From positions 1,000 through 64,999 of the forward strand of contig CAMZHH010000001.1 of the NCBI GenBank assembly GCA_947306745.1: a stretch of 64,000 nucleotides of DNA. The letters run 5' to 3'. A program made the translations under genes and the position numbers. Below are positions 22,441 to 59,487 of this stretch, piece by piece; position 1 is the stretch's first letter; every line of letters begins with the position of its first letter. Below the pieces are notes generated by a model. It worked only from the letters and a program-made list of their open reading frames with translations, did not search any database and had not been told where the DNA came from. This DNA is from an uncultured Candidatus Saccharibacteria bacterium (lineage in GTDB: Bacteria > Patescibacteriota > Saccharimonadia > Saccharimonadales > Saccharimonadaceae).

Positions 22441-22454
22441 TGGAAAATCGACCC

Positions 22455-26163: not shown

Positions 26164-26255
26164 AGCTCACCGCCGTTCACTACCTCTTGACTTTTTAAAG
26201 CGTTTATGCTATGCTCAACCATAGAAATCAACAAAAACAAACACAGCCGAACAAC

Positions 26256-28601: not shown

Positions 28602-28628
28602 CTCCGCTAGAAACTAGCGGAGTTTATT
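28602..28628. terminator. bidirectional hairpin terminator
   Basis: ctccgctag-aaa-ctagcggag (9 bp) with flanking A and T residues. It overlaps the last codons of the minus-strand ORF. Confidence 0.6.
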
Positions 28629-28949
28629 GATCATTGATGGCGGTGCCTGAGGAAAAACGGCGATGGTATCAGATTTGGGTTCATTCTTATGCAAACGGAT
28701 TTCAACCTGATGATATTCGCCCGCAGGGGCGTCCTGCAATTTACCGTAAATCCAACGCTGCCACCTGCCAAGGTGCGCGTCTCGCGTCACGCGAAACTGT
28801 AAGATCATTGCCTCATTTTGGTCGTTTTCGACTTCCATTACTACGATGGAGCCAACTTTAATGCGCTCGAGTTCCTTACGTTTGTTTCCTTTGAAGAAAT
28901 AAACTTTCTTCTTGAGTGCTTCGTCAAAAACAACGCTGTTCATCTTCAT
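28614..28949 (-). CDS. hypothetical protein
   Basis: ~111 aa, preceded by a G-rich RBS (GGGGGGGG). The start is ambiguous among GTG 28952, ATG 28949 and ATG 28943. Confidence 0.55.
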   Translation of the reverse strand: MKMNSVVFDEALKKKVYFFKGNKRKELERIKVGSIVVMEVENDQNEAMILQFRVTRDAHLGRWQRWIYGKLQDAPAGEYHQVEIRLHKNEPKSDTIAVFPQAPPSMINKLR

Positions 28950-29029
28950 CACCCCCCCCTTCGATACAAGATGACAGGCAATAATTAGATTATATCACAC
29001 TTTGGCAAAAATGTCAATACAGCTCAAGC

Positions 29030-29404
29030 TTAGAACGCTAACTTAGCGCGAATTTCTTCAAATTCATCCTCGCGCAATTTGAGAGTCTTTCCATACTCCC
29101 AAGTTTCACTCAGTGGCGTTAAATGCACGTGTGCGTGCGGCACATCAGTACCTACAACCTTCATTACTACACGACGACCGGTCACTTCCTCCATGTGCTT
29201 TGCCACTTTCTTAACAGAGGCCCATAAAGCATTCCAATCATCATCTTCAAGATCATAAATCTTATCCACTTCAACTTTTGGTACTACAAGGGTATGACCT
29301 TTTGCTTCTGGATTTATATCAAGAAACGCATAAGTCTTCTCGTCTTCGTAAATCTTATAACTCGGAATTTCACCGTTAATAATCTTCGTAAAAATACTTG
29401 CCAT
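29030..29404 (-). CDS. HIT-family (histidine triad) nucleotide hydrolase
   Basis: 124 aa with the N-terminal IFTKIINGEIPS and the triad HAHVHL. Confidence 0.9.
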   Translation of the reverse strand: MASIFTKIINGEIPSYKIYEDEKTYAFLDINPEAKGHTLVVPKVEVDKIYDLEDDDWNALWASVKKVAKHMEEVTGRRVVMKVVGTDVPHAHVHLTPLSETWEYGKTLKLREDEFEEIRAKLAF

Positions 29405-29424
29405 ACCTTCATTATAACAGAGCA

Positions 29425-29450
29425 GGAAAAACCGGGCCTTACGGCCCGGC
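29425..29450 (-). terminator. intrinsic terminator
   Basis: On the minus strand: ccgggcc-gtaa-ggcccgg followed by T5, directly after the MraZ-like stop. Confidence 0.7.
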
Positions 29451-29452
29451 GA

Positions 29453-29734
29453 TTAGGCTTCAACCAGACGCAATACAACGCGACCAGATTCGTCCTTACA
29501 GACAAAAGCACTCTTTGCCTCACGGCGGAAATACTTCGACAAGGCGATTCGACCCTTCATATCGCATTTGCGCCTGCATTTTTCGGGCACTGGCTGATCG
29601 GTATAGGGTTCGATATAAACCAAGTCGACGCGCTCGTCCTCAACATAAATCACATAAGTGTTTCCAGGCTCAATATAACCGCTCAGGCAAATGCGTCCGG
29701 CTTTATCGATGCTAATTCCATCGTAAAACTTCAT
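29453..29734 (-). CDS. mini MraZ/AbrB-like protein with two DxxxR motifs (93 aa)
   Basis: The internal ATG 29734 is preceded by GGAGGTGG. The sequence has SIDKAGRICL and CDMKGRIALS, i.e. two D-x-x-G-R-I motifs like the duplicated MraZ DXXXR motif. The 49-aa hydrophobic N-terminal extension in the ORF track was rejected. Confidence 0.55.
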   Translation of the reverse strand: MKFYDGISIDKAGRICLSGYIEPGNTYVIYVEDERVDLVYIEPYTDQPVPEKCRRKCDMKGRIALSKYFRREAKSAFVCKDESGRVVLRLVEA

Positions 29735-30020
29735 GTTATCCACCTCCAGGAATGAAACTATAGCAAATGCTATCTCTATAATTATAACATAATTCACATA
29801 TTTAATCAACCAAACCGTATATGCTAAAATAAATATAAGCATGGACAACAATACGAATCCAACCAACCCAAGCCCTACCAATCCTCAGCCAACGCCACCT
29901 AATCCACCCGTCGCCAGTCCGTTTTCCAACTACCCACCAATGGGCACTATGACTATCGGCACCCCAGCTGGCGCTATGGGCACGACTCCATAACAACCAC
30001 AACCGCAGGGCGCAGCACCT

Positions 30021-44331: not shown

Positions 44332-44424
44332 TGGCGGAGGGTGAGAGATTCGAACTCTCGCACCAGCTTTCGCCAGTCTAACGATTTAGCAAACCGTCCC
44401 CTTCAGCCACTTGGGTAACCCTCC
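44332..44424 (-). tRNA. tRNA-Ser (anticodon GCU), CCA encoded
   Basis: Reverse complement GGAGGGTTACCCAAGTGGCTGAAGGGGACGGTTTGCTAAATCGTT...GAGAGTTCGAATCTCTCACCCTCCGCCA, with a long variable arm. Confidence 0.9.
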
Positions 44425-44551: not shown

Positions 44552-44953
44552 ATGAAAAACATCATCAAAACTGCGAGCAGAGTAATGACCGGAGCAGCCG
44601 CCACCGTCACTATTCTTGCTGGTCGCGTTATGGCAACTGTTGGAAATTATGAAAACCCTGCTCAGGCTGGCGCTGAAGCCGCTCGTGCAAATGGCATGCC
44701 GGCCGAATTAGTTGGCGTTAATGGCGTTTTCACTAAGATTACCAATACGGTTCTTTATGCCGTTGGCATCATTTCCGTTATTATGCTTATTTACGGCGGT
44801 TTACGTTATGTAGTATCCGGTGGCGACAGCAAGAAAGTTACCGATGCAAAAAACACCATCATGTACGCTATTATTGGCCTCATCATTGCAATCCTTGCAT
44901 ACGCTATCGTTAACTTCGTCATCAGCGCCGTTGGTGGCGGTACCACCGTCTAA
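44552..44953 (+). CDS. VirB2/TrbC-like T4SS pilin-like protein, paralog 1
   Basis: 133 aa with an N-terminal signal-like segment and a C-terminal two-helix hydrophobic hairpin. The loop motif GGLRYVVSGGDSKKVTDAKNTIMYAIIGLII...IVNFV is shared with the six genes at 46338-49193. Confidence 0.7.
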   Translation: MKNIIKTASRVMTGAAATVTILAGRVMATVGNYENPAQAGAEAARANGMPAELVGVNGVFTKITNTVLYAVGIISVIMLIYGGLRYVVSGGDSKKVTDAKNTIMYAIIGLIIAILAYAIVNFVISAVGGGTTV

Positions 44954-44955
44954 AC

Positions 44956-45660
44956 TTATCCACTTTTTGCAATTATCATTGCGCCAACTCTAGTTATCTC
45001 TCGCTCGCAAAATCTTCGTGCAGCCTCAAGCATGCTACTTCCAGTAGTTCAAACATCATCTACTAAAATGTAGTACTTATCACAGCTTATATCTCCTTTT
45101 AAGGTATAAGCCGTTTTTGCTTGCTCTTTACGTTTATCCGCATCAGCACCAACTTGTGTCGCATTATTACCACGTACCAATAGCCGAGCGCATTCTACAC
45201 GCTCTAGGCGCGCTAAGCGCCGCACTAGCAGTCATGTATGATCAAAACCTCTTTCGCGTATGTGCTTGCTAATTGTCGGCAGGGGAACTAAAACGGCATT
45301 TTCTGGGAGCGATACGCATCGTGCTACCATTTCAGATATTATTTCGCCGCATGACCGTACAGAATTGTATTTGTAATTATTCACTAACTCCTTTAGTACA
45401 CCAATCCTTTTTCCTAAATGGAATTGCCATTTAAAGGGAAGAGGGCAGTTTAGGCATTCATTATTTCACAACAATTCGCCACACGACAAACATCTTTCCA
45501 CATGTGCCGATGTGATGTATTTTTTACAACATTCACATAGAATTCCACCATATTTTCCACAGGATAGACAGGGTTGAGGGCAAAAAATCTCACCCAAATG
45601 CCAAAATATTGTATTTTTCACAACAAAAACTCCGTTTTTCTTGATTTTAAGAGTAAACAT
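44956..45660 (-). pseudogene. comF: comF (ComFC-type amidophosphoribosyltransferase-like competence gene) with three in-frame TGA codons
   Basis: The 235-codon frame has no frameshift. It has an N-terminal CxxC zinc-finger pattern, LVPLPTISKHIRERGFDHT and the PRT motif YYILVDDV*TTGSS. TGA codons are at 45466-45468, 45232-45234 and 45049-45051, and the terminal stop is TAA at 44956-44958. Confidence 0.75.
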
Positions 45661-45708
45661 CCATATAATAAAGCTTAAGAGTGTAATTAGTGGAGGAAAA
45701 AAATTATT

Positions 45709-46224
45709 ATGGCTCGCAAACAAGACGAAATGAGCTTAGACGATGAGCTCACTGCTGCCTTCCTCGACGAGAGCAGCGAACCTGGTTTAGCAGAGGAGGA
45801 ACCGGTGGAAACTCCAGCTAGCGCTCCAGTCGCTACGGTCGAAGAAGAAACCTATATCGAAGAAGATGGCGACGGTTGGGATGATGTCGATGACAACGTT
45901 CCTGGTCAGCTTGCAGTAGATGTCTACGAAACTGCCGATAAATTAGTTATTAAAGCTCGTACTGCCGGTATCGAACGCAAAGATCTCGATGTTTCTATTT
46001 CTGATAACATCCTTACTATTTCTGGTGTTCTTAATGGTGGCGAAGACGACAAGGCTACCCAATGGCACATTCAAGAGTGCTACTGGGGTGAATTCAGCCG
46101 TACTATCGCTTTGCCAGTACAAGTTAAAGAAGATGGCGTTGAAGCCGTCCTCAAAGATGGTGTTCTTACTATTTCCTTCGAAAAGGAAAAGGTTGAAGCT
46201 CCAAAGCGCATCACCATTAACTAA
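45709..46224 (+). CDS. Hsp20/alpha-crystallin family small heat-shock protein
   Basis: 171 aa with a GGAGG RBS, an acidic N-terminus and an alpha-crystallin domain (LAVDVYETADKLVIKARTAGIERKDLDVSI...DGVLTISFEK). Confidence 0.9.
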   Translation: MARKQDEMSLDDELTAAFLDESSEPGLAEEEPVETPASAPVATVEEETYIEEDGDGWDDVDDNVPGQLAVDVYETADKLVIKARTAGIERKDLDVSISDNILTISGVLNGGEDDKATQWHIQECYWGEFSRTIALPVQVKEDGVEAVLKDGVLTISFEKEKVEAPKRITIN

Positions 46225-46246
46225 TTCTTATACCATCGTCAAACCG

Positions 46247-46274
46247 AATACGCCTCGTAAGGGGCGTATTTTTA
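46247..46274 (+). terminator. intrinsic terminator of hsp20
   Basis: Hairpin atacgcc-tcgtaagg-ggcgtat followed by T5. Confidence 0.75.
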
Positions 46275-46288
46275 TATAGTACATTCAC

Positions 46289-46321
46289 AAAAAATCTTCC
46301 TCGACTACCTCGAGGAAGATT
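46289..46321 (-). terminator. intrinsic terminator of the pilin gene 46338..46706
   Basis: 10-bp hairpin atcttcctcg-actacct-cgaggaagat with T4 on the minus strand. Confidence 0.7.
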
Positions 46322-46337
46322 CACTATATATAGTATA

Positions 46338-46706
46338 TTAAGCGCCAAGCTGAGTTAATACGAAGTTCGTAATAGCAAAGGCGAGGAGAACCACGATCAA
46401 ACCAATGATACCGTAAAGAATAGTGTCTTTACCTTTCTTTACTTTAGATGCATCACCTTGGGAAGTAGCATAGCTAACACCACCGAGAATAATCATAATA
46501 ACGGCAACCATACCGACTACTACATATACAGCGTTAAGGATTAGCTGAATTTGCGATTCGAGAGTAACGTTTTTATCAGTATTTGGGTTTACGCTATCGA
46601 GACCAGTCTTAGCTTTACCGGCCGCAGCAAACGTAGAAACAGCTGGAAGAGTAGCGCTAAAGACTGTAGCTGCACATCCTTTTGCGATAGTCTTAATTTT
46701 ATTCAT
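46338..46706 (-). CDS. VirB2/TrbC-like pilin-like protein, paralog 2
   Basis: 122 aa from the ATG after the AAGGAG RBS (the ORF track starts 11 codons upstream). It has a signal peptide and the C-terminal motif IILGGVSYATSQGDASKVKKGKDTILYGIIGL. Confidence 0.75.
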   Translation of the reverse strand: MNKIKTIAKGCAATVFSATLPAVSTFAAAGKAKTGLDSVNPNTDKNVTLESQIQLILNAVYVVVGMVAVIMIILGGVSYATSQGDASKVKKGKDTILYGIIGLIVVLLAFAITNFVLTQLGA

Positions 46707-46763
46707 TTTATAGGTTTTCTCCTTATCTATACTTAGCATAACATAAACGCATTATTTTCGCCA

Positions 46764-46792
46764 CAAAAAGCGCCCTTTGAGGGCGCTTTCTC
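46764..46792 (-). terminator. intrinsic terminator between pilin paralogs 3 and 2
   Basis: Hairpin agcgccc-tttga-gggcgct with T5 on the minus strand. Confidence 0.7.
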
Positions 46793-46805
46793 TTCTATGA
46801 TTCTA

Positions 46806-47312
46806 TTACGCAGCGATAGCTTGGAGTACGAAGTTGACAATTGCAAATGCAAGAATTGCAACTACGAGACCAATGATACCGTAAAGAATGGTATCTTTGC
46901 CTTTCTTGACCTTAGAAGCATCACCTTGGGAAGTAGCATAGCTAACACCACCGAGAATAATCATTACAACGGCAACCATACCAATGACGAAGATTACAGC
47001 GTTAATAATAGTCTGAACCATCGTGTTAAGGTCGTTACCATTACAGCTTTCTGGGTTAGAAGCAAGCGAACCTGCTTTTGCACAGTCAGCAGTACTTTTA
47101 CCGTAAATAGTAGTGACGGTAGCTTTTGAGCCCGTACCTTCCTTCACGGTCGTACATTTGATAGTGAAGGTCTTATCTTGCTTTGCGGAAAGGTTTGCAT
47201 ACTCACCCTTACCGAGACAATCCTTTACGGCAGCCATAGAAGGTGCTGCAATAATAAGCACTGCAAATACGGAGAGTGCCGCAATTTCAAATGCTTTTTT
47301 AAGTTTATTCAT
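46806..47312 (-). CDS. VirB2/TrbC-like pilin-like protein, paralog 3 (Cys-containing variable domain)
   Basis: 168 aa with a GAAGGAG RBS and a signal peptide. Its C-terminal motif is identical to paralog 2 over most of its length. Confidence 0.75.
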   Translation of the reverse strand: MNKLKKAFEIAALSVFAVLIIAAPSMAAVKDCLGKGEYANLSAKQDKTFTIKCTTVKEGTGSKATVTTIYGKSTADCAKAGSLASNPESCNGNDLNTMVQTIINAVIFVIGMVAVVMIILGGVSYATSQGDASKVKKGKDTILYGIIGLVVAILAFAIVNFVLQAIAA

Positions 47313-47390
47313 GTTTTCTCCTTCTTTTATAATTTTCGAAAAACCTTAACCTTATTTTAACATAAAATAATTATTTCAATACCACTATGT

Positions 47391-47702
47391 CTAAATCGTC
47401 CCCTGTAATGCTCTAATTACGAAGTTCACAATCATGAACGCAAGTAAACAAATAACTAAACCAATTACGCCAGCGATAATGGCGTCTTTACCTTTCTTTG
47501 CTTTTCCTGGATCGCCTTGAGAAGTCGTTAATTGAACACCACCGATAATAATCGCAATTACTGCAATTACCGCAAAGAAACCAGTAACAAAATTAATAAT
47601 CGTGCCTACAGAAGACTGCAAATTGCCACTTGCACCAGTACCGCCTTGCGAGGTAGTTACCTGATCTTTAATACTTGCACCAAATACTTGAATAATATTC
47701 AT
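47391..47702 (-). CDS. VirB2/TrbC-like pilin-like protein, paralog 4 (short, no obvious signal peptide)
   Basis: 103 aa with the motif IIGGVQLTTSQGDPGKAKKGKDAIIAGVIGLVI...IVNFV. Its ATG overlaps the upstream stop (TAATG). Confidence 0.7.
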   Translation of the reverse strand: MNIIQVFGASIKDQVTTSQGGTGASGNLQSSVGTIINFVTGFFAVIAVIAIIIGGVQLTTSQGDPGKAKKGKDAIIAGVIGLVICLLAFMIVNFVIRALQGTI

Positions 47703-48076
47703 TAGCCGACTGCCCTCAAAATAAAGTTAACAATTGCGTACGCTAAAATAGCTACAATTAAGCCGATAATAGCGTAGAGAATAGTATCTTTTGCTGATTT
47801 AACTTTGCCGGGATCGCCTTGCGAGGTCATATATTTTACGCCACCGATAATAATTACAATTACCGCGATGATACCCATCCAAATAAAGACAGTGCTCAAG
47901 ATATTTTTAACATGCCCCTGCAAATCTGCCTCTGTGCCACCACCGCAAAGCGTTTGATAGTTTGGCAAGTTTTTAGCCTCAGCACTATTACAAATGTCAT
48001 CAACTGCAAATGCCGAAGTAGTTCCAATCGTAATAATCGCCACTAAGGCTACTAATACCGCTAATATTCTTTTCAC
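47702..48076 (-). CDS. VirB2/TrbC-like pilin-like protein, paralog 5
   Basis: 124 aa with a signal peptide and the motif IIGGVKYMTSQGDPGKVKSAKDTILYAIIGLIV...IVNF. Its GTG start overlaps the upstream TAG by 1 nt. Confidence 0.7.
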   Translation of the reverse strand: MKRILAVLVALVAIITIGTTSAFAVDDICNSAEAKNLPNYQTLCGGGTEADLQGHVKNILSTVFIWMGIIAVIVIIIGGVKYMTSQGDPGKVKSAKDTILYAIIGLIVAILAYAIVNFILRAVG

Positions 48077-48729
48077 TACAATGCTCCTAACACAGTATTA
48101 ACAATTGCGATGGATAGAATAACAATCAATAAACCGATTGAAGCATACATAATAGTATTCTTCGCTTTCGATACTTTGCCAGGATCGCCAGTACTGGTTG
48201 CATAATAAATACCACCGATAATAATCATCGCAACCGCTACAATCGCCGCCCAAGTAAAGGCGTGGTTAAATACGTTTACAAATATATTCTTTGCACCGGC
48301 TTCACCAAGAATGCCTGTAATCGTCTTTGAAATTGTGGATGCTAAAACGGTAATTACTAAGCCAATCATGGCATTACGAATCGTGGTTTTACCCTTAGCT
48401 GCCTTCGCTGGTTCACCTTGGGAGAACATATATAAATAACCACCCCAAATCACCATCAAAATCGCAAGATAACCTACGACACCCACCACGTCACCGACAA
48501 TATTTAATACAATTGTCCAAATCGACACGGTAATTTTATCTTCGCTCTTCCAGTTGCTATCCTCAAGCAGACAAGAGCCGGATCCAGACTTGTACCATGG
48601 AGTTAGACCCATGAAATCAGCCATCGAACCGCAGTCTGCAGCGTAAGTATTTGTAGCCAATACGCCACTAAAGCTCAACGCTAATACTGCGAAGAGGGAA
48701 GCGAATAGCAAATATATCTTCTTTCTCAT
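48076..48729 (-). CDS. tandem (two-domain) VirB2/TrbC-like pilin-like protein, paralog 6
   Basis: ~217 aa with two copies of the motif (WGGYLYMFSQGEPAKAAKGKTTIRNAMIGL and IIGGIYYATSTGDPGKVSKAKNTIMYASIGL). ATG 48729 overlaps the upstream TAA (TAATG). The ORF track offers TTG 48735. Confidence 0.7.
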   Translation of the reverse strand: MRKKIYLLFASLFAVLALSFSGVLATNTYAADCGSMADFMGLTPWYKSGSGSCLLEDSNWKSEDKITVSIWTIVLNIVGDVVGVVGYLAILMVIWGGYLYMFSQGEPAKAAKGKTTIRNAMIGLVITVLASTISKTITGILGEAGAKNIFVNVFNHAFTWAAIVAVAMIIIGGIYYATSTGDPGKVSKAKNTIMYASIGLLIVILSIAIVNTVLGAL

Positions 48730-49193
48730 TACCAAACCCTTACATTAATTACCGTTAACATGCTTGTATCAGCACCAGGCAAGATAAATCCTACCAATAC
48801 CGCCGCTAATACCCACAAAACTAGACCAATCACAATCTCAAAGATACGCTTCTTCGCTTTTTCGACCTGCGCCGCATTATCTCGGGCCGTTAGCATTGTA
48901 ATACCACAGATAATTACACCAATCGTACCAGCTACGACTACACCAGCGGTCAAAATCGTAATCACAAGCTTAATTAGGCTCATTATATCGTCACCCGAAC
49001 CATTGCACATCCATGTCAGCAATGACGCACACTCACCCTCCTCAGCGGTGTCTAATGTTTTGTCCGTCGCGGTTGGAGTATCGTCGCCCGAATCCGGATC
49101 GGCATATACACTCTGTACCGATGTTACGCCTAAGCTAAAAACCGCTAGAAATGCGGCTAATACGAGGCTAATTACTTTTCGTTTTTTCAGCAT
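48729..49193 (-). CDS. divergent VirB2/TrbC-like pilin-like protein, paralog 7 (first gene of the pilin operon)
   Basis: 154 aa with a signal peptide, a Cys pair and a looser motif (CGITMLTARDNAAQVEKAKKRIFEIVIGLVL). Confidence 0.6.
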   Translation of the reverse strand: MLKKRKVISLVLAAFLAVFSLGVTSVQSVYADPDSGDDTPTATDKTLDTAEEGECASLLTWMCNGSGDDIMSLIKLVITILTAGVVVAGTIGVIICGITMLTARDNAAQVEKAKKRIFEIVIGLVLWVLAAVLVGFILPGADTSMLTVINVRVW

Positions 49194-49389: not shown

Positions 49390-49418
49390 TTGACTAAAAT
49401 GCTTATGTGTGCTATAAT
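49390..49418 (+). promoter_or_regulatory. sigma-70-type promoter (TTGACT-17-TATAAT) for the T4SS-like operon, leaderless geometry
   Basis: TTGACT at 49390-49395, a 17-nt spacer, and TATAAT at 49413-49418. The ATG at 49428 is 9 nt downstream with no SD. Confidence 0.7.
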
Positions 49419-49427
49419 AAAAGAGTT

Positions 49428-52139
49428 ATGGGTAAGTGTGTTAAAAACATAATCTTATCTCTGTTAGCGACCGTATTTAGCCTAGTGGCGTTCTCCGGTC
49501 CAGTTTTTGCTGTAACCCCAAATACAACCGTAAACACGGTTACTTCTTTTGCTACCGTCACGCCAAATCCAACCAACCCAGACAACCCTGATGACCCAGA
49601 AAACCCAGAAGAGGAGACCACTACAGAAGAAAATCCTTCCTGTTACGATCAAGTCGGCGGTATTGGCTGGCTTATTTGTCCTGGTACCGGCTTCCTCGCC
49701 AATGTTATCGATGGCGCTTACGATGTTCTTGAGAATCTTATCAAGGTTAATCCAATCCCAACCGATGAAGAAAGCCCAATCCATGTTGTTTGGGAATATC
49801 TCCGTAACATCACCAATGTAGTATTTATTATCTTCCTCTTGATCGTCATCTATTCTCAGCTCACTGGTTTCGGTATTAATAATTACGGCATCAAGCGTGT
49901 TCTTCCGCGCATTATTATCGCCGCCATCCTCGTAAACCTTAGCTACATCGTCTGTATCTTTGCCGTAGATATTAGCAACATCATCGGCGGTGGCCTTCGT
50001 GGCGCTCTGAATGATATTCAGCAAGCCGCTCTCACTAGCGGAAAGGTTAGCGAGGTCGCAGCGAATGCCTCTGTTGCTGGCATCGTCGCTACAATTCTTG
50101 GTATTGGCACTGTCGGCACAGTAGTAGCATTCACTTTTGCTGGTGGCCTTAGCGGTATCTTATGGTTGTTGATCCCAATCGTCTTATCTGGCGCCATCGC
50201 CATTCTTTCTGCGGTCGTCACAATGGCGGCTCGTCAAGCACTCATCTTCTTACTCGTCATGGTATCGCCATTAGCATTCGTCGCTTATCTGTTACCGAAT
50301 ACAGAGAAGTGGTACAAACGCTGGCTCAATCTCTTCGCCAGTATGCTTTTCTTCTACCCAATGTTCAGCCTCCTTTACGGCGCTAGCCGCCTCGCAGGCT
50401 TAGTAATTATTACATCTGCCACTAACTGGCTCGGCGTCGTCTTGGGTATCGCTGTAGAAGTTTTGCCATTATTTATGTCAATTCCACTCATGCGCATGTC
50501 TAATACGATGCTCGGCCGTATCGACGGTCTCATCCATCGCGCAGGCGCACCAGTTCATGGTATGGCCGTCCGCCGCGCTACCGAAGGTCAAATTTTGGCC
50601 AAACAACGCCAACTTTCTTCCACTAGCCATCGTCCATCCACTCGTCTTGCTCAATATCTCGAGCAACGCCGCTTGAACCGCAAACTCGATACCGATGACG
50701 CTATCGCCACTGGCCACAAGATGCGCATGGCTAACTATAACCGTAGTATGTACGACAGCTACGGCCGTCTCACCAACCGCGGTCTTCGCCGTTACACTAA
50801 TATTCAACGTGGCATCGATGCCGATAATCTCATCACTAAGACCGCTATCGACTTCGATGAAGGATTCGGCGATGACGGTACCGATACTCGCGTCCGCACT
50901 CGCGATCTCCAGCGCATCCGCACCGTAAACTCCGCCTTAATCCAAGGCGTTGATACGGCTCAAATTCTCAAATCTCGCCAACGCGCAGTTGAGCTCGAAA
51001 ATACTCGTAGTCGCGCTGAGCGCATCCGTAGTGAAGCAGAGAATGAGCACTCCGAAATCCATCGCCAAATTACCTCCGCATTTAATATGCGCAACACGTC
51101 AAATAACCCAGCAGAGCAACGCGCAATTCAAAGCTCTATCAATGCAACACTTTCCGATGCTATTACTGATAGCCGTAAGGTTGACGCTATCGCCAAGGGT
51201 AACTACCGCGAACTCTACGACGATATGCCAGCCGGCCACGGCCCGCAAGATAAACTCGTCGAGGCATTCGGCCAGCAAGATTACAACTCCATGGCTGCCG
51301 CTATTGAAGTTATGGCTAAGCGTGGCGACTTCAAAGATATCCAAGAAACCCTCTTCGACAACTCTGGTGCCGTTGCTGATAATATTCGCATGCAGAAACA
51401 ACTTGCCGACTCGCTTATTACTCAAAAAGCCGACGACCAGATCCTCTGGGCATACGCTAAGGCTAATATGGTTCGCCGCGGTATGAACAGCGGTGGCAAG
51501 CAAATCGCACCATTTATCGATTTCAAGACCTTTATTAATGGTGGCACCATGCCAGGCGACGTCGATGCTGACGCTATAAAGACCACTTCGCTTGATAAGA
51601 TTCTCGAAGATGTTAAGGGTGCTGGCACCACCGCAACTCAGGACCGCACGGTCTTCAAGGCTATGCTCAGCTTTATGAAGAAGGGCGAACTCTCGGTTGG
51701 TACTGTTGACAATCCAAACCTCCATATCCCAATGAAGTATCTCCGCTCAGCTGCTGTATCTGGCGCTATGGATGGTGAGCAACTTGGTACACTTAACAAA
51801 TTCATCACCTTCGGCTTCGATCCAAACGCTACAACTCAAGATGCCTTCTTTACCGCTAACCAAGCCATTGTCCAGAAGAATATCGAAAGCTTCTTCAAAG
51901 ATATGGCCGCTTCACAGCTCGTTGGCATTAAGAGCTCTACCTTTAAGTCGATGAACTCCGCAATGCTCGCTATCGATCCAGCTTCCGCTGTCACTCAGCC
52001 AAACGGTTCCGTAGTCAGCCAGCACGTCCTCGACGCACTTGCTCCACAAATCGCTGCAGTCAGCAAGCAGAACTATACGGCTCGCGGTGGCATGAACCCA
52101 GAAATCCGCGGCATGCTCAATATTCCAGTCGATCGCTAA
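49428..52139 (+). CDS. VirB6/TrbL/TcpH-like polytopic T4SS membrane protein with ~520-aa soluble C-terminal domain
   Basis: 903 aa from ATG 49428 (the ORF track start 49407 lies inside the promoter). It has a signal/TM segment, an acidic Pro/Asn-rich segment, ~7 TM helices (aa ~120-390), then a long hydrophilic region. The call rests on topology and context. Confidence 0.6.
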   Translation: MGKCVKNIILSLLATVFSLVAFSGPVFAVTPNTTVNTVTSFATVTPNPTNPDNPDDPENPEEETTTEENPSCYDQVGGIGWLICPGTGFLANVIDGAYDVLENLIKVNPIPTDEESPIHVVWEYLRNITNVVFIIFLLIVIYSQLTGFGINNYGIKRVLPRIIIAAILVNLSYIVCIFAVDISNIIGGGLRGALNDIQQAALTSGKVSEVAANASVAGIVATILGIGTVGTVVAFTFAGGLSGILWLLIPIVLSGAIAILSAVVTMAARQALIFLLVMVSPLAFVAYLLPNTEKWYKRWLNLFASMLFFYPMFSLLYGASRLAGLVIITSATNWLGVVLGIAVEVLPLFMSIPLMRMSNTMLGRIDGLIHRAGAPVHGMAVRRATEGQILAKQRQLSSTSHRPSTRLAQYLEQRRLNRKLDTDDAIATGHKMRMANYNRSMYDSYGRLTNRGLRRYTNIQRGIDADNLITKTAIDFDEGFGDDGTDTRVRTRDLQRIRTVNSALIQGVDTAQILKSRQRAVELENTRSRAERIRSEAENEHSEIHRQITSAFNMRNTSNNPAEQRAIQSSINATLSDAITDSRKVDAIAKGNYRELYDDMPAGHGPQDKLVEAFGQQDYNSMAAAIEVMAKRGDFKDIQETLFDNSGAVADNIRMQKQLADSLITQKADDQILWAYAKANMVRRGMNSGGKQIAPFIDFKTFINGGTMPGDVDADAIKTTSLDKILEDVKGAGTTATQDRTVFKAMLSFMKKGELSVGTVDNPNLHIPMKYLRSAAVSGAMDGEQLGTLNKFITFGFDPNATTQDAFFTANQAIVQKNIESFFKDMAASQLVGIKSSTFKSMNSAMLAIDPASAVTQPNGSVVSQHVLDALAPQIAAVSKQNYTARGGMNPEIRGMLNIPVDR

Positions 52140-52192
52140 AATCATATATTATACTGAGCCAAAAATCATTTTGTTTATGTTAAAATGAAAGT

Positions 52193-53392
52193 ATGGCTCA
52201 GTATAAGGTCCCACAAGATGTTGAGGCGGACGATAAACTTCTTGGTCCGTTTACTTTTCGTCAGTTTGTGTATCTTATGATTATCGGCGGTCTTGTCGCC
52301 ATCGGATTTTTGCTCTGGCAAATTTTCCCACTATTAATTATTATTTTGATTCCACCGATTCTTTTATTAGGCGTTCTCGCCCTACCATTTAAGAAAGATC
52401 AGCCGATGGAGACTTATCTTTCTGCTATCGTTTCGTATCACTTGAAGCCTCATACTCGCATCTGGGAGCCAGGCGAGCCAGAGGCTACTATTGTTATTAC
52501 CGCACCGAAGAAAACCGATGAGGTTCACTTGAAGGGAATTAGCCAAGAGGAAGCTACTCATCGTCTGTCTTTCCTTGCCGATATCGTCGATACGGAAGGT
52601 TATGCTATTAAAGGCGGTGTCAAAGAGGAAATCTACGCTGAGGCAAATGCCACAAAAGATATCTTCGAAATGGCGCAAACTTCCACCCTTAATCAGGCAT
52701 TACAATCCAATGCTACTTCACGTCATGACGAGTTAGTCAATCAAATGCGCGAAGCTATTGAACGCAATAATTCATTCAATGCCGCGAATGGCCCAGCCAT
52801 CAATCATCATTTCAATAATCCTCAAGTTCAACCACTTAATCAGCCTACACCATATCCAAGCACTCCAGCTTATAACCCAATGCCAACTGTTGCTCCTATG
52901 CCAACGGTTACACCTATGCCGACCGTAGCACCACAACCAACTATGGATCAAGCGCCTCTTTCTGCCTATGGCGGAAATAATCTAAACACTGATCCATACC
53001 AAAATTCTTCAGCTGTCATTCAGCCAGATCTTCCATTGCCAGAAGCTACTGCTCCGCCGTCTTATGATGAGCAAATCGCCGAATCTAGCGAATATTTACC
53101 AGAAGACGAAAAAGAGCGCCTCGAAGGAAATGGCCCTTCTGAGCACCATACAGAAGAGGAGCAACCAATCTCCGAAGAAGCACAACAAGATGTAGATTAT
53201 TACGATAATACCGATGCTGACCAAGTCGACGAGCCACAGCCAGAACTGGAACCAGAGCCAGAACCAAATCAGCAAATGATTGACCTAGCTAATAATCCTG
53301 ATTTCTCGATTGAAACTATTGCGCAACAAGCCAATCGTATCAATAACGAAGAAAACAATAATAAAGACGAAGTTTACGTATCATTACATTAA
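52193..53392 (+). CDS. PrgI-family (VirB3-like) T4SS membrane protein with long Pro-rich/acidic C-terminal extension
   Basis: 399 aa. The N-terminus MAQYKVPQDVEADDKLLGPFTFRQFVYLMIIGG... plus two TM helices matches the PrgI family pattern. Confidence 0.65.
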   Translation: MAQYKVPQDVEADDKLLGPFTFRQFVYLMIIGGLVAIGFLLWQIFPLLIIILIPPILLLGVLALPFKKDQPMETYLSAIVSYHLKPHTRIWEPGEPEATIVITAPKKTDEVHLKGISQEEATHRLSFLADIVDTEGYAIKGGVKEEIYAEANATKDIFEMAQTSTLNQALQSNATSRHDELVNQMREAIERNNSFNAANGPAINHHFNNPQVQPLNQPTPYPSTPAYNPMPTVAPMPTVTPMPTVAPQPTMDQAPLSAYGGNNLNTDPYQNSSAVIQPDLPLPEATAPPSYDEQIAESSEYLPEDEKERLEGNGPSEHHTEEEQPISEEAQQDVDYYDNTDADQVDEPQPELEPEPEPNQQMIDLANNPDFSIETIAQQANRINNEENNNKDEVYVSLH

Positions 53393-53401
53393 GGAGTTAA
53401 C

Positions 53402-54271
53402 GTGCAACCACAATATCAATACCCAAATCAAACTCCGCAAATGGGCGGACAAATGATGGCCCCAATGCAAGCTGGCCAAACTCAAATGCAGCCACAAGCT
53501 AATAATCAAATCGCTACCGCCCAACCACAGCAAGGTCAAGGTCAGCCGAATGCTATCCCAGTCCCATCCAAAGAAAACCCAAACTCTACCCAGGCTACAT
53601 TATTAATATCTGAGCTTCGTGACTCTATGGTCATTATGAAAGATGGTTCTTTCCGTGCAGTGGTTGCCTGCAAATCCATCAACTTCGACCTTATGAGCGA
53701 GACTGAAAGGGAAGCTGTTGAGTATTCGTACCAAAACTTCCTTAACTCCTTAAACTTCCGTATTCAAATCCTCATCCGCTCTCAGCGCGTTGATATTGGC
53801 CCATATATTGATCGTCTCTCCGAACTTCGCCGTAATAACGACAATATGCTTCTTGGTATCTTGATGGACGATTATATCAACTTCATCGATATCCTTTCTC
53901 AGGAAGCGAATATTATGGATAAATCATTCTTTATCGTAATTCCATATTACACTTCCGCTGAAGCAGAAAAGGCTATGGAAGCTACAAAAAACTTCTTTAA
54001 GTCATTTAGTAAAACTAAAGCTCCAGCCATCAACCGCATTGACCGCGCCACCTACGATAAAGCCGTTACTGAAATTAATAACCGCGTTGAAGCTGTCATT
54101 TCCGGCCTCTTCCAGATCGGTATTCACTCAGTTCGCCTCAACACTAAGGAACTTGGCCAGCTTTATTACAACTTCAATAACCCAGATACAGCCGTTCGCG
54201 AACCACTCGGAGACTTTAATAAACTTGCGCATCTTTATGTAAAGAAAGGCGAAAAGGGAGAACAACAATAA
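53402..54271 (+). CDS. hypothetical T4SS-associated protein resembling a VirB4 N-terminal domain, Gln-rich N-terminus
   Basis: 289 aa with an AAGGAG RBS and a GTG start. The segment ISELRDSMVIMKDGSFRAVVACKSINFDLMSETEREAVEYSYQNFLNSLNFRIQIL follows the pattern seen at the N-terminus of Gram-positive VirB4 homologs. Its stop overlaps the next ATG (TAATG). Confidence 0.5.
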   Translation: MQPQYQYPNQTPQMGGQMMAPMQAGQTQMQPQANNQIATAQPQQGQGQPNAIPVPSKENPNSTQATLLISELRDSMVIMKDGSFRAVVACKSINFDLMSETEREAVEYSYQNFLNSLNFRIQILIRSQRVDIGPYIDRLSELRRNNDNMLLGILMDDYINFIDILSQEANIMDKSFFIVIPYYTSAEAEKAMEATKNFFKSFSKTKAPAINRIDRATYDKAVTEINNRVEAVISGLFQIGIHSVRLNTKELGQLYYNFNNPDTAVREPLGDFNKLAHLYVKKGEKGEQQ

Positions 54272-56076
54272 TGGCAAAACAACCACAACTTAGCGCCGCC
54301 GATATTGCCGCGCAAGCCCAACTTCAAGAAGAAGTTGAAATCCAGAAGGCGTTCGAAACTGGTATTACTACGCTTCGTGATCTTATTTCGCCATCTTCCA
54401 TCGAAATCCACTCCGACTATTTCCGTCTCGGTACAAAATATGGCCGCACTATTTATGTTTACGGTTACCCACGCTCACTTTATACCGGCTGGCTCAGCTC
54501 GATTATTAACATCGATGAAGTTCTCGATATTTCTATGTATATTTATCCAGTCGATACCACCGTCGTCATGAAGAACCTTCAAAAGAAGGTGACTCAGCTC
54601 GAGGCTAGCGCAAACATCAACAGTGAAAAAGGTAAGATTCGCGATCCAGAGCTCGAAGCCGCCATCTCCGATGCTGAGGAACTTCGTGATCAACTCCAGG
54701 TTGGTGCTGAGAAATTCTTCCGTTACGGTCTCTATGTAACCATCTATGCCGACTCGCTTGATGAGCTTCAGTTCGTTCAACACAAGATTGAGAATATTTT
54801 CGGTCAGCAAATGGTCTTCAGTAAAGTTGCTAGCTCGCAGCAAGAGCAGGGCATGAATACCACTATGCCGCAATGTACCGACCAATTACAGATTCGCCGT
54901 AACATGAACACGGGCGCTATTTCCACTAGCTTCCCGTTCACCTCAGCCGACCTTACTCAGGAAAAAGGCATCCTTTACGGCATTAATATGCACAACAACG
55001 GTCTTGTCATCTTCGACCGCTTCTCACTAGAAAACGCCAACATGGTCGTCTTCGCTAAGTCCGGTGCAGGTAAATCTTTCACCGTCAAGCTTGAAGCGCT
55101 TCGCTCTATGATGGTTGGTACCGAAATCTTGATTATCGACCCAGAAAACGAATATCAAAAACTCTGCGACGCTGTTGGTGGTGCATATATTCGCTTGAGC
55201 CTTAACTCTGACGTACGTATTAACCCATTCGACCTACCAAAGGTTGTCGACTCCGAAGATGCTAACGATGCACTTCGCGCTAATCTCGTTACACTCCACG
55301 GTCTTTTCCGTTTGATGCTTGGTGGCGCCGCTGGCGGTACTGCTCAGCTCACACCAAATGAGGAAGCCGATCTCGACCAAGCCTTAATCGATACTTATGC
55401 GCGTGCCGGTATTACTAACGATCCACTCACGCATACTTCCACACCGCCTACCATTATTAACTTGTTTGATACTCTACTTCATATGGGCGGCACCGGTCCA
55501 AGCCTCGCTCAGCGTCTCCGTAAATATACCACTGGTACTTTCGCTGGTATCTTCTCACAACAATCCAACATCGATATCAATAACCAGATGGTCGTCTTTA
55601 ACATTCGTGACCTCGAAGATGAACTCCGTCCAGTCGCTATGTATATCGTACTTAGCCACATTTGGAACATTACCCGTGCCAACCAAAAGAAACGCCTTCT
55701 CCTCGTAGATGAGGCCTGGCAGTTAATGAAATACGAAGACTCCGCAAACTTCCTCTTTAGCCTTGCGAAGCGTGCCCGTAAATATTATCTCGGTCTTACT
55801 ACAATTACACAGGACGTTGAGGACTTCATGTCGTCCAAGATGGGACGCGCCATCGTGGCTAACTCTTCCATGCAGCTACTTTTGAAGCAGTCCGCATCCG
55901 CCGTCGATGTCTTGTCTGACGTCTTTAAGCTCACTGATGAGGAACGCAAACGTCTATCAAACTTCCCAGTTGGTCAAGGTCTCTTCTTTGCCGGTCAAAA
56001 CCACGTCCATATTCAAATCGTGGCGTCCGAAACTGAGGAAAGCCTCATTACGACGAATCCGAACGCTCGCAAGTAA
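54271..56076 (+). CDS. virB4: VirB4-family T4SS ATPase
   Basis: 601 aa with Walker A KSGAGKSF and Walker B LLLVDEAW. The N-terminal ISPSSIEIHSDYFRLGTKYGRTIYVYGYPRSL pattern is typical of VirB4/TrbE/CagE proteins. Confidence 0.85.
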   Translation: MAKQPQLSAADIAAQAQLQEEVEIQKAFETGITTLRDLISPSSIEIHSDYFRLGTKYGRTIYVYGYPRSLYTGWLSSIINIDEVLDISMYIYPVDTTVVMKNLQKKVTQLEASANINSEKGKIRDPELEAAISDAEELRDQLQVGAEKFFRYGLYVTIYADSLDELQFVQHKIENIFGQQMVFSKVASSQQEQGMNTTMPQCTDQLQIRRNMNTGAISTSFPFTSADLTQEKGILYGINMHNNGLVIFDRFSLENANMVVFAKSGAGKSFTVKLEALRSMMVGTEILIIDPENEYQKLCDAVGGAYIRLSLNSDVRINPFDLPKVVDSEDANDALRANLVTLHGLFRLMLGGAAGGTAQLTPNEEADLDQALIDTYARAGITNDPLTHTSTPPTIINLFDTLLHMGGTGPSLAQRLRKYTTGTFAGIFSQQSNIDINNQMVVFNIRDLEDELRPVAMYIVLSHIWNITRANQKKRLLLVDEAWQLMKYEDSANFLFSLAKRARKYYLGLTTITQDVEDFMSSKMGRAIVANSSMQLLLKQSASAVDVLSDVFKLTDEERKRLSNFPVGQGLFFAGQNHVHIQIVASETEESLITTNPNARK

Positions 56077-56118: not shown

Positions 56119-56190
56119 TTGTAAATATTACAACATTATCCCTTAAAAAAGTTGCGTATTTCAGATAAATATTATAAAATATATACATCT

Positions 56191-59100
56191 ATGGTCTCCA
56201 CACCAAATGACGGTCGCTATCGCGGCAAACATGATCCATATAATAATATGGAAGAGGCGAGTATTCGTCCTAGCAACATCGCTCGCCAAGAGCTATCTGC
56301 CGCAGAAAAAGCCGCTACGAAAAATCCTAGCGACTCCGCCTCGTCAGGCCAAAAATCTTTTACTTCAAATCGTATTACGCGCTCACTTCAACAATCCGAA
56401 AATAACCAAAAATCCCAACTCCAGAATCAATTCCGCAACTCCGTAAGAGGGAAGAATGAGCCGAAAACTACCGGACGCACACGTTTCTTAAAGAAAGTTG
56501 CCCCACTTACCATTATTGTTGGTGTTTTGTTTGGTGGTGGTGCGTTTTTCTATGGTGCTCAATCCTTGCTTGCACCACATCTCTCCGCTTTATACACTAA
56601 TGCTACCGACTTACAGTTTACTTCCTACTCTATGCGCAACTCGCGATTAATTTCCTATATGATTAATGGCGGCGGACAAGTAAAAATTAGTGGTTTCACT
56701 ACTAAATATGCCGCTTTTTCGCCATATCTAAAAAGCCGCTTAGCCAAAAATGGTATCGAAGTTGGACATCTCGACTCGTCTGGCGCTTTTCAGTCCGGCC
56801 AAATCGGCGGCAAAACCGTTTTAAAATTCGAAGATAAAATTATCGACGCGGGTTCATTCCAAACCGAATTCGCAAATAATGCTAATTTTCGCGACGCCTA
56901 TTACCAAGCAAAGCGTGGTAGAATTGCTGGTTTCTTTGATGATTCAGCCGATTATTACTACAAGAAGAAAGGCGCTACGCGTGATATCTTTGACCAATAT
57001 AAGTCCACTGGCGATAACGATGCTGATACCGAAAAATTCGAAAGTACAGTTTCTGAACGTGTCACTGGCTCCGACGCATCCGTAAATACCGTTCGTCATG
57101 AGACTGACGAAGAAACCGGCGAAGACCATATTCGCGAAAATGGTGAAGATATCGACACCACCAGAGTTTCCGGCGACACGCCAGAGTCAAAAGCGCGCGC
57201 CATGGTAAATAATATTGCCGGTAAAGTTTCGTCAATTGGTGTACCAGTTTGTTCTGCTTTGCGTATCGCAAATATTGCCGCCGTCACAGTTTCGGCGTAT
57301 CAAATATATCAATCCATCGCGTACTTCTTAAGCCTCATGGAACCGATTAGTAAAATGATGGCCGGCGAAGGTGAAGCTTCGGCGATTAATGAAAACTTAA
57401 ACTTCCTTACAACTTCAACTTATTCAGATGTTAATTATGTAGATAGCCAAGGCAATCAACAGACTAAACAAGTTTACGGTTCACCAGTTGAATCGGCTGG
57501 CGCTAAACTTGTTATGGGTAACACTTTATCGAAAAAAGAAGATTACGAACCATATTCCTTCGATAATATTACTCGCGCCGCAACAACTATTGCAGTTTCT
57601 ACTGGCGTCACTAATACTGCCTGCGCTGGCGTTATGGCTGCTTCTGCAATTATGTCACTCTCCGCAACCGCAATTCCTGGCGGTAAACTCGCTACTTTCA
57701 TCGTTGGCGCCATTGCGCAAACTGTCGGTGGTATCGTTTTGACAGGCATTGTCGCTGCAATTGTCAGTGCGATTATTCCATATGTCGCTAAAATCTTCGC
57801 TAGCAACATTTTTGAAACCTACACTGGTATCCCAGCTGGCGAGCTATTCTCACAAGGTGCCGCCACCGCTAACTTTAATCTCGCTACACAGGGCAGTGCT
57901 TATATGCCATCTGATAAATCTGCTGTAAAAACCCAAAATCGCAACACTACTCTCGCGCTCGCCCAGGAAGCTGAGCTTGATCGTCTCCATCGTAGCCCAT
58001 TTGACGCAACGAGTCCAAACACCTTCCTCGGCTCACTACTATCCAACTTCACTTATTTATCCTCCAGTAATAATGCAATGAGCAATATTGCAAACTTCAC
58101 AAACGTAGTTGGTAAATCTATCCGTAAAATTAATACTGTTTCTGCCGCTGACGAAGAATTAACTTACATTTCCAATAACCAAGATTGTACTTTCTTACCA
58201 GGCGCCGTCTGCGATATGTATGGCTTGCCAATTCCGACTTCTGATTATTCTACCATCGACGTTTCACCAGATGATCCCAACTATATTGCAGCCATCTCTC
58301 CAAATCTCGATTCAGACGGCAAAATTAAGGAAGGCTCCGAATTAGCGAAATTTATTAACTTCTGCGGCAATCGTCAATCTCCATGGGGCGTCAAAGATGC
58401 AAATATCCTCAATGCGCTTCAAACTGATTTCGGCATTGTCGGAAACAACCTTCCAGTTGTGAATGACATTGTAGACGTTATCAATGCCGCCGAAGATGTT
58501 GCGAATGAAGGTTGGGCTACCGGTTCAGTTTGTATGAATTCCGCAGATAATCCACGTTGGGATAGTGAATTCAAATATTATCAACGCTACATTGAAGATA
58601 TGCGCATCTTATCCAGTATGGATGGTAGTAATAATACTTCCGCAAGCGCATCAGGTGGCCTTAATGATGATTTAGCTCAAAAAATTGTCGAACATTTTAA
58701 AGATTCATCCAACGACGATAAATGGACCCCATCTCTAACTAAATGGAACTGTGTTAGCCTGAGTACTTATTTCGTGCAATTATTTACAAACATTGACGGT
58801 AAATCCGCCCTAAACGGCGGCGGTAAAAAGGGATGTATCTCTTGTAGTAATGGTGTTACAGTAGCCGATGGTCTAGCCGCCTATGGCGTACCAGTCGGCA
58901 CCGAGCCTCGTCCATATTCAATTTTTAGTGTCTCCGGCCCAAGTGCCTATGCATCAGGCGAAGCAGGGCACACGGGTGTAGTATTAGCTGTTAATGGTAC
59001 TGATTTAACCATTATCGAAGCTGGTTGGGGCGCCGATGGCTATGCTGCCGTTCGCCACTACGACCTAAATCAAATGCAAGATCGCAAATTCGCTTATCTT

Positions 59101-59487
59101 GAAGATTATATGGACTGGGATGCATTATCAAAAGCTACCGGAACCAAAGTAACGAATAATATTTCATCTACCGAACCAACCACTCCAAGTAATCCAGTTC
59201 TAGCATACCTCCAAGAGTATGATGCCACTCATCCAGAAGATAATTCTTTTGAGGGGATCCTTGCACGCATTTCTGGTCAAACAAAAGACGATATCGCTAT
59301 GATGCTCGAATTCGTGGATTATAGTACAAAGATTGCTAATTATGATCCATCTACACGCTATGTTTTCGGCCAAAACGAAACGTCAGAAACGCAAATATCC
59401 TTCGAGGAAGAAAACTTACCAAATATTACTGCCGTAATTCGTAATTCCAATCGTATTTTTATCGATAAGAGGAACTACGTTTTATGA
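56191..59487 (+). CDS. large polytopic membrane protein with C-terminal CHAP peptidoglycan hydrolase domain (VirB1/PrgK/TcpG analog)
   Basis: ~1098 aa from ATG 56191, which lies 10 nt after TATAAAAT. The ORF track start 56152 overlaps the -35 region. It has TM helices at aa ~115-140 and a cluster at ~360-560. The CHAP motifs are KWNCVSLSTYFV (Cys) and GHTGVVLAV (His). Confidence 0.7.
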   Translation: MVSTPNDGRYRGKHDPYNNMEEASIRPSNIARQELSAAEKAATKNPSDSASSGQKSFTSNRITRSLQQSENNQKSQLQNQFRNSVRGKNEPKTTGRTRFLKKVAPLTIIVGVLFGGGAFFYGAQSLLAPHLSALYTNATDLQFTSYSMRNSRLISYMINGGGQVKISGFTTKYAAFSPYLKSRLAKNGIEVGHLDSSGAFQSGQIGGKTVLKFEDKIIDAGSFQTEFANNANFRDAYYQAKRGRIAGFFDDSADYYYKKKGATRDIFDQYKSTGDNDADTEKFESTVSERVTGSDASVNTVRHETDEETGEDHIRENGEDIDTTRVSGDTPESKARAMVNNIAGKVSSIGVPVCSALRIANIAAVTVSAYQIYQSIAYFLSLMEPISKMMAGEGEASAINENLNFLTTSTYSDVNYVDSQGNQQTKQVYGSPVESAGAKLVMGNTLSKKEDYEPYSFDNITRAATTIAVSTGVTNTACAGVMAASAIMSLSATAIPGGKLATFIVGAIAQTVGGIVLTGIVAAIVSAIIPYVAKIFASNIFETYTGIPAGELFSQGAATANFNLATQGSAYMPSDKSAVKTQNRNTTLALAQEAELDRLHRSPFDATSPNTFLGSLLSNFTYLSSSNNAMSNIANFTNVVGKSIRKINTVSAADEELTYISNNQDCTFLPGAVCDMYGLPIPTSDYSTIDVSPDDPNYIAAISPNLDSDGKIKEGSELAKFINFCGNRQSPWGVKDANILNALQTDFGIVGNNLPVVNDIVDVINAAEDVANEGWATGSVCMNSADNPRWDSEFKYYQRYIEDMRILSSMDGSNNTSASASGGLNDDLAQKIVEHFKDSSNDDKWTPSLTKWNCVSLSTYFVQLFTNIDGKSALNGGGKKGCISCSNGVTVADGLAAYGVPVGTEPRPYSIFSVSGPSAYASGEAGHTGVVLAVNGTDLTIIEAGWGADGYAAVRHYDLNQMQDRKFAYLEDYMDWDALSKATGTKVTNNISSTEPTTPSNPVLAYLQEYDATHPEDNSFEGILARISGQTKDDIAMMLEFVDYSTKIANYDPSTRYVFGQNETSETQISFEEENLPNITAVIRNSNRIFIDKRNYVL

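Follow-up and report, generated by a model that had tools for sequence, protein, structure and literature searches.

In-frame UGA codons maintained in comF across a clade of gut and rumen Saccharibacteria point to gene-specific read-through

Introduction

The competence gene comF of an uncultured rumen Saccharibacterium contains three in-frame UGA codons in an otherwise unbroken reading frame. It lies on the minus strand of a 64,000-nucleotide stretch of DNA (contig CAMZHH010000001.1 of assembly GCA_947306745.1, positions 1,000 to 64,999), which was analysed as a whole and is referred to here as the window. Comparison with related genomes indicates that comF is functional and that gene-specific read-through of UGA makes the full-length protein, probably by inserting tryptophan (Trp); we consider this likely. 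In-frame UGA in comF is an inherited feature that marks a whole clade of Nanosyncoccaceae-like Saccharibacteria from gut and rumen. An original prediction for this DNA had left three options: a young pseudogene, a gene recently acquired from a lineage that reads UGA as sense, and gene-specific read-through. It is the last of these that the data support, and its maintenance across a whole clade had been missed.

Natural competence occurs in Saccharibacteria, which possess ComEC, ComF and DprA; none of these is needed for growth in co-culture (PMC10633639). No prior report of UGA or other stop codons in Saccharibacterial comF was found in the literature searched, the closest being the use of UGA for Trp in Minisyncoccia JAKLIH01.

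A comF frame interrupted only by TGA

The comF frame runs on the minus strand from 45660 to 44956 and comprises 235 codons. Translation gives exactly three stops, all of them TGA, with no frameshift, no internal TAA or TAG, and a TAA terminator at 44958-44956. The coding sequence itself probably occupies 44956-45621, from a GTG at 45621 to the TAA at 44956-44958, which makes 221 sense positions, three of them UGA. The product is a ComF/ComFC-type competence protein. That the frame is of ComF type, with three in-frame TGAs and no frameshift, had been predicted, and is borne out by this translation and by a match to the NCBIfam family TIGR00201 (comF; E=8e-21, 74.8 bits against a curated cut-off of 233, covering positions 1-186 of the 190 in the profile). 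The Pfam phosphoribosyltransferase (PRT) family PF00156 matches weakly, at 18.6 bits against a gathering score of 26.3. When a profile of the comF family was compared with the PDB, the best match was Helicobacter pylori ComF (7p0h, E=1.6e-4).

The motifs expected of such a protein are in place. Cysteines C31, C34, C42, C45, C57, C60, C69 and C72 of the zinc finger are invariant or nearly so in the alignment, and the window protein has all of them, including the two CxxC pairs of the N-terminal zinc finger. It also has the phosphoribosyl pyrophosphate (PRPP) loop, of the DDxxTTG type, as YYILVDDV-TGA-TTGSS.

The three TGAs differ in their setting. The first (45466-45468, minus strand; alignment column 78) follows CLSCGELL within the zinc finger and is common to the window, to the separate metagenome contig L001 and to L009, a species at 60% amino-acid identity. 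The residue in this column varies (N/K/I/V/D); relatives use AAT, AAA or GAC there, and TGG occurs in no homolog. The second (45232-45234, minus strand; column 178) follows RGFDHT and is found only in the window species (window and L001), again at a variable position (L/G/K/E), where relatives have AGT, GGA, CAG or GAA. The third (45049-45051, minus strand; column 253) takes the place of the invariant Trp in the PRPP-loop motif DDV-W-TTGSS. Here 74 sequences have TGG, 13 have TGA and two encode Leu, and the tree requires at least seven state changes. The prediction that the third TGA occupies a sense position between DDV and TTG agrees with the 74 sequences that have TGG. The expectation that the TGAs replace residues of a recognisable pattern held in part: the third replaces a conserved Trp, while the first two stand in variable columns that are not Trp, Arg or CGA positions.

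Assembly error, a possibility that the original prediction had singled out for testing, does not account for the TGAs. The same three occur in L001, which is approximately 3-4% diverged within the gene (about 23 positions). In addition, contigs from four DNA runs of sheep and cattle gut show no difference at 45049, 45232 or 45466, and contigs from two metatranscriptome-labelled runs, which also cover comF, have TGA at all three sites, so that the codons recur in contigs of six public runs.

In-frame UGA as a clade-wide trait

Homologous comF loci were gathered from 80 species-representative genomes and several metagenome contigs, giving 89 loci in all. Every locus yielded a single unbroken high-scoring segment pair in tblastn. 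On a neighbour-joining tree the comF sequences fall into two groups. One is monophyletic; of its 53 distinct sequences, 51 have between one and three in-frame TGAs. The other, which serves as the outgroup, has an in-frame TGA in none of its 34. Frameshifts and internal TAA or TAG codons are absent from all 53 distinct clade sequences and from the outgroup as well, and the zinc-finger cysteines and PRT motifs are all kept. In codon terms, comF of the clade uses TGA 65 times and TGG 68 times, against 0 and 81 in the outgroup.

The in-frame TGAs are spread over 15 alignment columns. Many are common to several species, nine at column 52, eleven at column 60 and thirteen at column 253. Under Fitch parsimony the 15 site states need at least 26 changes, whereas the trait of having at least one in-frame TGA needs three, namely a single gain at the root of the clade followed by two losses. 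Turnover can be followed within a single subclade, in which L015 has TGA at columns 52 and 186, and L028 has lost the TGA at 52 and has TGA at 98 and 186. As judged from these reconstructions, the pattern is one of positional turnover in which the trait itself is maintained. The alignment further suggests that new TGAs arise where substitution is tolerated, and not simply by TGG>TGA at conserved Trp codons, because the first two sites in the window are variable positions.

The best homologs are all from ‘Candidatus Saccharibacteria/Nanosyncoccaceae’, and the window itself comes from a rumen Saccharibacterium with an array of type IV secretion system (T4SS) pilins and with groES/EL. Relatives share a conserved synteny of T4SS pilins, hsp20, comF, pilin and groES/EL, which is seen in more than 80 Saccharibacteria.

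UGA elsewhere in these genomes

The DNA sampled for this comparison comprised approximately 20 kb around comF in each genome, the 64-kb window, and approximately 20 kb beyond the window ends. Across neighbour genes homologous to window genes, no TGA was aligned to Trp (about 2,900 aligned TGG codons, or about 3,350 in a wider count). Likewise, a scan of non-overlapping open reading frames (ORFs) in 1.5 Mb of loci found no homology-spanned in-frame TGA outside comF. An earlier scan of all ORFs had been swamped by shadow ORFs of conserved genes and was redone in this form. The hits outside comF all proved false, consisting of a tRNA-Ser pseudo-ORF, GroEL antisense ORFs, adjacent genes in the same frame, and 5' leaders. 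The first of these is instructive as a trap for such scans: the tRNA-Ser(GCT) at 44332-44424 on the minus strand has a TGA in one frame and, together with the downstream gene of 156 aa, mimics a recoded ORF.

TGA also terminates genes. It ends approximately 9% of genes of at least 150 aa, in the TGA-bearing clade and the outgroup alike. Within the window it ends a Mur ligase gene (35722-24) and a 1111-aa gene that overlaps the next ATG at 59484-59487. These two cases uphold the prediction that TGA acts as a true stop elsewhere in the window, the second through the ATGA overlap. The further prediction that genome-wide recoding is unlikely also stands, given neighbour genes without in-frame TGA and the share of genes that TGA ends.

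A subtler form of genome-wide change was also considered. UGA might be decoded ambiguously throughout the genome by a UGA-reading tRNA-Trp (with a UCA anticodon, a 4-bp anticodon stem, or of Hirsh type) that operates beside release factor 2 (RF2). In that case the clade would represent an early intermediate of UGA-to-Trp reassignment, and comF would merely be where TGA was seen. Many independent gains of TGA in one clade, and none outside it, fit this idea, as do the reassignments of UGA in related members of the candidate phyla radiation (CPR), to Gly in Gracilibacteria and Absconditabacteria and to Trp in Minisyncoccia JAKLIH01 (PMC13092985). So do the unusually close back-up stops behind TGA terminators of the clade. 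There, the next in-frame stop follows a TGA terminator at a median of 4.5 codons, compared with 11.5 after TAA or TAG (p=2e-4), and tandem stops accompany 16.7% of TGA terminators and 7.2% of TAA/TAG terminators, the difference in the outgroup being not significant; these statistics are drawn from loci L002-L088, which are not phylogenetically independent. The close back-up stops are a weak hint that UGA is leaky in the clade. However, about 3,350 Trp codons in neighbour genes come without a single in-frame TGA, against 65 of 133 in comF; the use of TGA as terminator is equal in clade and outgroup; and no other homology-supported split gene appears in the 1.5 Mb of loci. Genome-wide ambiguous decoding is therefore an unlikely explanation. 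It is a rival on mechanism, and is compatible with comF being the preferred or the only target.

Purifying selection on the frame

Selection was measured as dN/dS by the method of Nei and Gojobori (NG86), downstream of a TGA and in pairs of species that share that TGA, which is accordingly older than their divergence. Values 3' of shared TGAs lie between 0.08 and 0.3, even at dS>1, where they are saturated and approximate. Individual pairs gave 0.08 (L010/L082), 0.08 (L030/L033) and 0.14 (L024/L026). The window and L001 differ by 13 synonymous and 10 non-synonymous changes, corresponding to an omega of 0.21-0.26. The median dN/dS of the TGA-bearing clade is 0.23, not above the 0.32 of the TGA-free outgroup. 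Because selection downstream of the TGAs is purifying and the motifs are kept, the frame appears to be translated through them.

This bears directly on the idea that gut Saccharibacteria are losing comF, once or recurrently, through nonsense mutations. Loss might seem tolerable, since com genes were dispensable for growth in transposon sequencing (Tn-seq) of a cultured Saccharibacterium (PMC10633639), and code-11 gene callers do report truncated ComF fragments (P0040, P0050, P0052). A pseudogene would nevertheless not be expected to show purifying selection 3' of shared TGAs, nor 53 distinct sequences free of frameshifts, TAA and TAG. In comF the stops are exclusively TGA, though mutation of TGG to TAG is equally easy, the catalytic and zinc motifs are all kept, and TGAs are common to species whose synonymous sites are saturated. 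The version in the original prediction, a young pseudogene produced by GC->AT transitions, is refuted by the inheritance of TGAs across dozens of species with dN/dS of 0.08-0.3, and is contradicted as well by the two window TGAs that are not at Trp, Arg or CGA positions. Pseudogenisation is thus very improbable.

The inserted residue and the sequence context

Trp is the most likely residue to be inserted, on the basis of column 253 and of general knowledge of near-cognate UGA decoding. Column 201 points the same way (TGG 19, TGA 4), while the other TGA columns, apart from 253, are variable positions with TGG in none to four sequences.

Database homologs might appear to settle the matter, as some have ‘W’ at these positions, but this evidence was rejected. 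The proteins P0001, P0002 and P0004 do not translate so under table 11, and the DNA of L001 has TGA where P0001 has W. They are sequences called with table 4 on short contigs and not independent evidence. After this, only TGG in DNA was counted as Trp. The same gene is called as fragments on long contigs (P0040, P0050, P0052, P0021), and as full-length with W on short ones (L001, L097, L095/L096), so that public annotation of this gene family is inconsistent.

Of 67 in-frame TGAs, 55 are followed by A or C and few by T, compared with T in 33% and C in 7% after TGA terminators. No shared downstream element is possible across 15 TGA positions. Selenocysteine was considered and rejected: the TGAs align with Trp or variable residues, only L020 at column 203 aligning with Cys, and although selenocysteine insertion sequence (SECIS) elements were not searched, the positions are too varied for a shared one.

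Three further explanations were weighed. Post-transcriptional editing of the mRNA (A-to-I, turning UGA into UGG) could restore Trp codons, and would account for gene specificity without changed termination elsewhere. Bacterial TadA is able to edit some mRNAs. However, the contigs of the two metatranscriptome-labelled runs keep A at the three sites (contigs hide minority variants, and such libraries may contain DNA), the contexts TGAA and TGAC are unlike the UACG target loop of TadA, and a recognisable structure would be needed at each of the 15 positions. Editing is accordingly a remote prospect. Still less probable is a split gene, in which termination at UGA and re-initiation give fragments that assemble into a working ComF, or in which the N-terminal fragment functions by itself. 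Code-11 ORFs with possible GTG starts after the TGAs are consistent with this, but the break points vary among lineages over 15 columns and one falls inside the PRPP loop (DDV|TTG). Moreover, codon-for-codon alignment is kept across each TGA with no conserved restart signal, and selection acts in that one frame on the parts 3' of the TGAs. A recent horizontal transfer of comF out of a UGA-sense lineage (code 4 or 25), which had been predicted as an option and would suit the limitation of TGAs to one gene in the window, is refuted by synteny kept in more than 80 Saccharibacterial relatives and by a clade-structured gene tree, with best homologs that are all Saccharibacterial and nothing unusual in the GC content or neighbourhood of comF, and can safely be set aside.

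The start of comF and the divergent hsp20 promoter

The ATG at 45660, which the original prediction took as the start of comF, is too far upstream; it lies inside the promoter of the divergent hsp20 gene and is not conserved among relatives. That promoter (45641-45669, plus strand) is near-consensus, TTGATT-17-TATAAT, overlaps the ATG, and has the same sequence in all loci. The hsp20 gene, encoding a small heat-shock protein, occupies 45709-46224 on the plus strand according to the ORF list, with a PF00011 annotation in syntenic loci, and lies divergently beside comF in all related loci.

The comF start is instead likely to be GTG 45621, as judged from an upstream alignment of 68 loci. A Shine-Dalgarno (SD) sequence, GGAG, stands 8 nt 5' of it (45630-45633, minus strand), and the combination of an SD followed by a GTG at the VKNT motif is kept throughout the TGA-bearing clade. 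All three window TGAs lie 3' of this GTG. In several species there are in-frame TGAs just 5' of VKNT, but these were not accepted as extra sites, as they fall in the variable spacer of the hsp20 promoter or in the 5' region, before the GTG.

The two groups of comF differ in how translation begins. The TGA-bearing clade has a strong SD (AAGGAGG) and a GTG start, whereas in the TGA-free clade translation begins at an ATG that lies four codons upstream of that position, after a very short leader and without a clear SD. This change in the initiation region coincides with the base of the TGA-bearing clade.

The hsp20 promoter and 5' leader stand back-to-back with the comF start region. Both the promoter and the leader (GCTTAAGAGTGTAATTAGTGGAGG, plus strand), at 45641-45709 of the window and in L002-L088, are almost invariant in more than 80 species. 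The element could be a heat-shock operator.

A possible translational gate

The observations can be arranged into a model. At the base of the clade, comF gained one or more in-frame UGAs, along with its strong SD and GTG start. Afterwards, UGAs were gained and lost at many positions, with nearly every lineage keeping at least one. Near-cognate tRNA-Trp(CCA), or a clade-specific UGA-reading variant of tRNA-Trp, would decode UGA in competition with RF2. Each UGA would let only a fraction of ribosomes pass, and three would cut the yield of ComF multiplicatively. The UGAs may act as a translational throttle or gate that holds ComF and DNA uptake very low, or ties them to conditions that raise read-through, namely the level of charged tRNA-Trp and RF2 activity. 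This reading is suggested because the TGA trait is maintained while its positions turn over. In its strongest form, in which the UGAs are a selected gate that works together with the strong SD, full-length ComF would be made only when charged tRNA-Trp is abundant or RF2 activity is low. We offer this form tentatively, as a possible but rather doubtful extension of read-through.

Several points weigh against comF being a functional gene expressed by gene-specific read-through. The expected yield of ordinary near-cognate read-through through three UGAs is very small. Neither a tRNA-Trp gene nor a gene for RF2 or another release factor was found in the window, in 88 loci, or in 20 kb beyond the window ends, and further genes with in-frame TGA may occur elsewhere in these genomes. 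Two clade members, L023 and L075, lack in-frame TGAs, the tree was built by plain neighbour joining, and the largest dS values are saturated, as noted above. As 13 of the 15 TGA columns have no or very few TGG codons in homologs, it is chiefly columns 253 and 201 that speak for Trp as the inserted residue. The base following the TGAs provides no independent evidence of a read-through signal, because TGG codons in comF show the same bias. Finally, the case for a read-through product is built from sequence.

Genomic context

Seven paralogous T4SS pilin-like genes flank comF at 44552-49193 (PF18895-type in syntenic loci). After the pilins come TrbL/PrgI/TraC/VirB4-like genes at 49407-56076, in an arrangement kept across the family.

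Other parts of the window are less readily classified. No Pfam family matches the large ORFs of 1727, 1111, 383 and 404 aa at E<=1e-5 (14139-19322, minus strand; 56152-59487 and 26211-28577, plus strand). A 734-aa gene at 59484-61688 has a phage-tail-lysozyme domain. The regions 22349-23084 (minus strand) and 28614-30002 contain only short ORFs of 54-153 aa, several with a TAG end.

Just past the right end of the window, a LytR_cpsA_psr gene is a single 589-aa ORF in two samples and is divided into 123 and 419 aa in a third (L093 2985-4609 versus L092 2773-4542), which looks like a strain-level frameshift. GC skew is negative throughout positions 1-64000 and dnaA-dnaN-recF lie immediately past the right end; therefore, the window abuts the replication origin.

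Implications

Annotation is the first matter that these findings affect. Code 11 makes comF a truncated gene or pseudogene across the whole gut and rumen clade, while table 4, applied to short contigs, silently gives ‘W’. Either way, conclusions on the competence of CPR bacteria are led astray.

More broadly, comF is a rare natural case among bacteria in which in-frame stops are kept in one gene across about 50 species, under purifying selection and without a cis element common to them. The gene lends itself to testing how much read-through of UGA cells sustain, and why. The arrangement may connect DNA uptake to termination efficiency or to tRNA-Trp charging in an epibiont that is auxotrophic for amino acids. 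It may also show an early, gene-limited stage of UGA reassignment in a superphylum with at least two such reassignments. If the gate is real, it would represent a form of gene-specific recoding control that is new for bacteria, and perhaps a living intermediate toward the UGA reassignments of the CPR.

Comparison with known systems

Leaky UGA codons read by tRNA-Trp are known from the A1 protein of phage Qbeta, and low-level decoding of UGA as Trp from Bacillus subtilis. As proposed for comF, near-cognate tRNA-Trp there competes with RF2, the full-length product is minor, and a UGA followed by A or C is a leaky context. In contrast, the UGAs of comF lie inside the core of a single-domain-pair protein, not at the end of an ORF that continues into a second one. 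A single gene may hold as many as three. Between species they change position, yet the trait of having them persists, and a truncated ComF is without evident function.

Ir75a of Drosophila sechellia is a pseudo-pseudogene. Proteogenomics of Salmonella supplies bacterial examples, genes with premature stops that still yield protein (PMC9122581). Like comF, such genes are annotated as broken by an in-frame stop; they are functional through read-through, as is proposed for comF. However, the bacterial examples are strain-level, of low expression and without deep conservation, whereas the feature in comF extends over about 50 species and is under purifying selection.

Reassignment of UGA within the CPR, as code 25 (Gly) in Gracilibacteria and Absconditabacteria and as Trp in the Minisyncoccia family JAKLIH01 (PMC13092985, where UGA-reading tRNA-Trp variants are also discussed), involves the same superphylum and the same codon, with Trp as its probable meaning in comF. 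Those reassignments are genome-wide and leave UGA with no role as terminator; here, UGA still serves as the stop of about 9% of genes and, in the DNA sampled, behaves as sense in comF alone.

ComFC of H. pylori (7p0h, PMC9005727) and Saccharibacterial ComF (PMC10633639) share with the window protein an N-terminal four-Cys zinc finger and a C-terminal PRT-like domain with the DDxxTTG loop, and ComF is part of the com gene set conserved in naturally competent Saccharibacteria. No in-frame stops have been described in ComFC/ComF proteins elsewhere, while Saccharibacterial ComF has an invariant Trp in the PRPP loop that is often TGA in this clade. With the other genes of these genomes as the chief uncertainty, the in-frame UGAs of comF differ from their known relatives in being confined to one gene, present in about 50 species, located at multiple sites, and positionally fluid.
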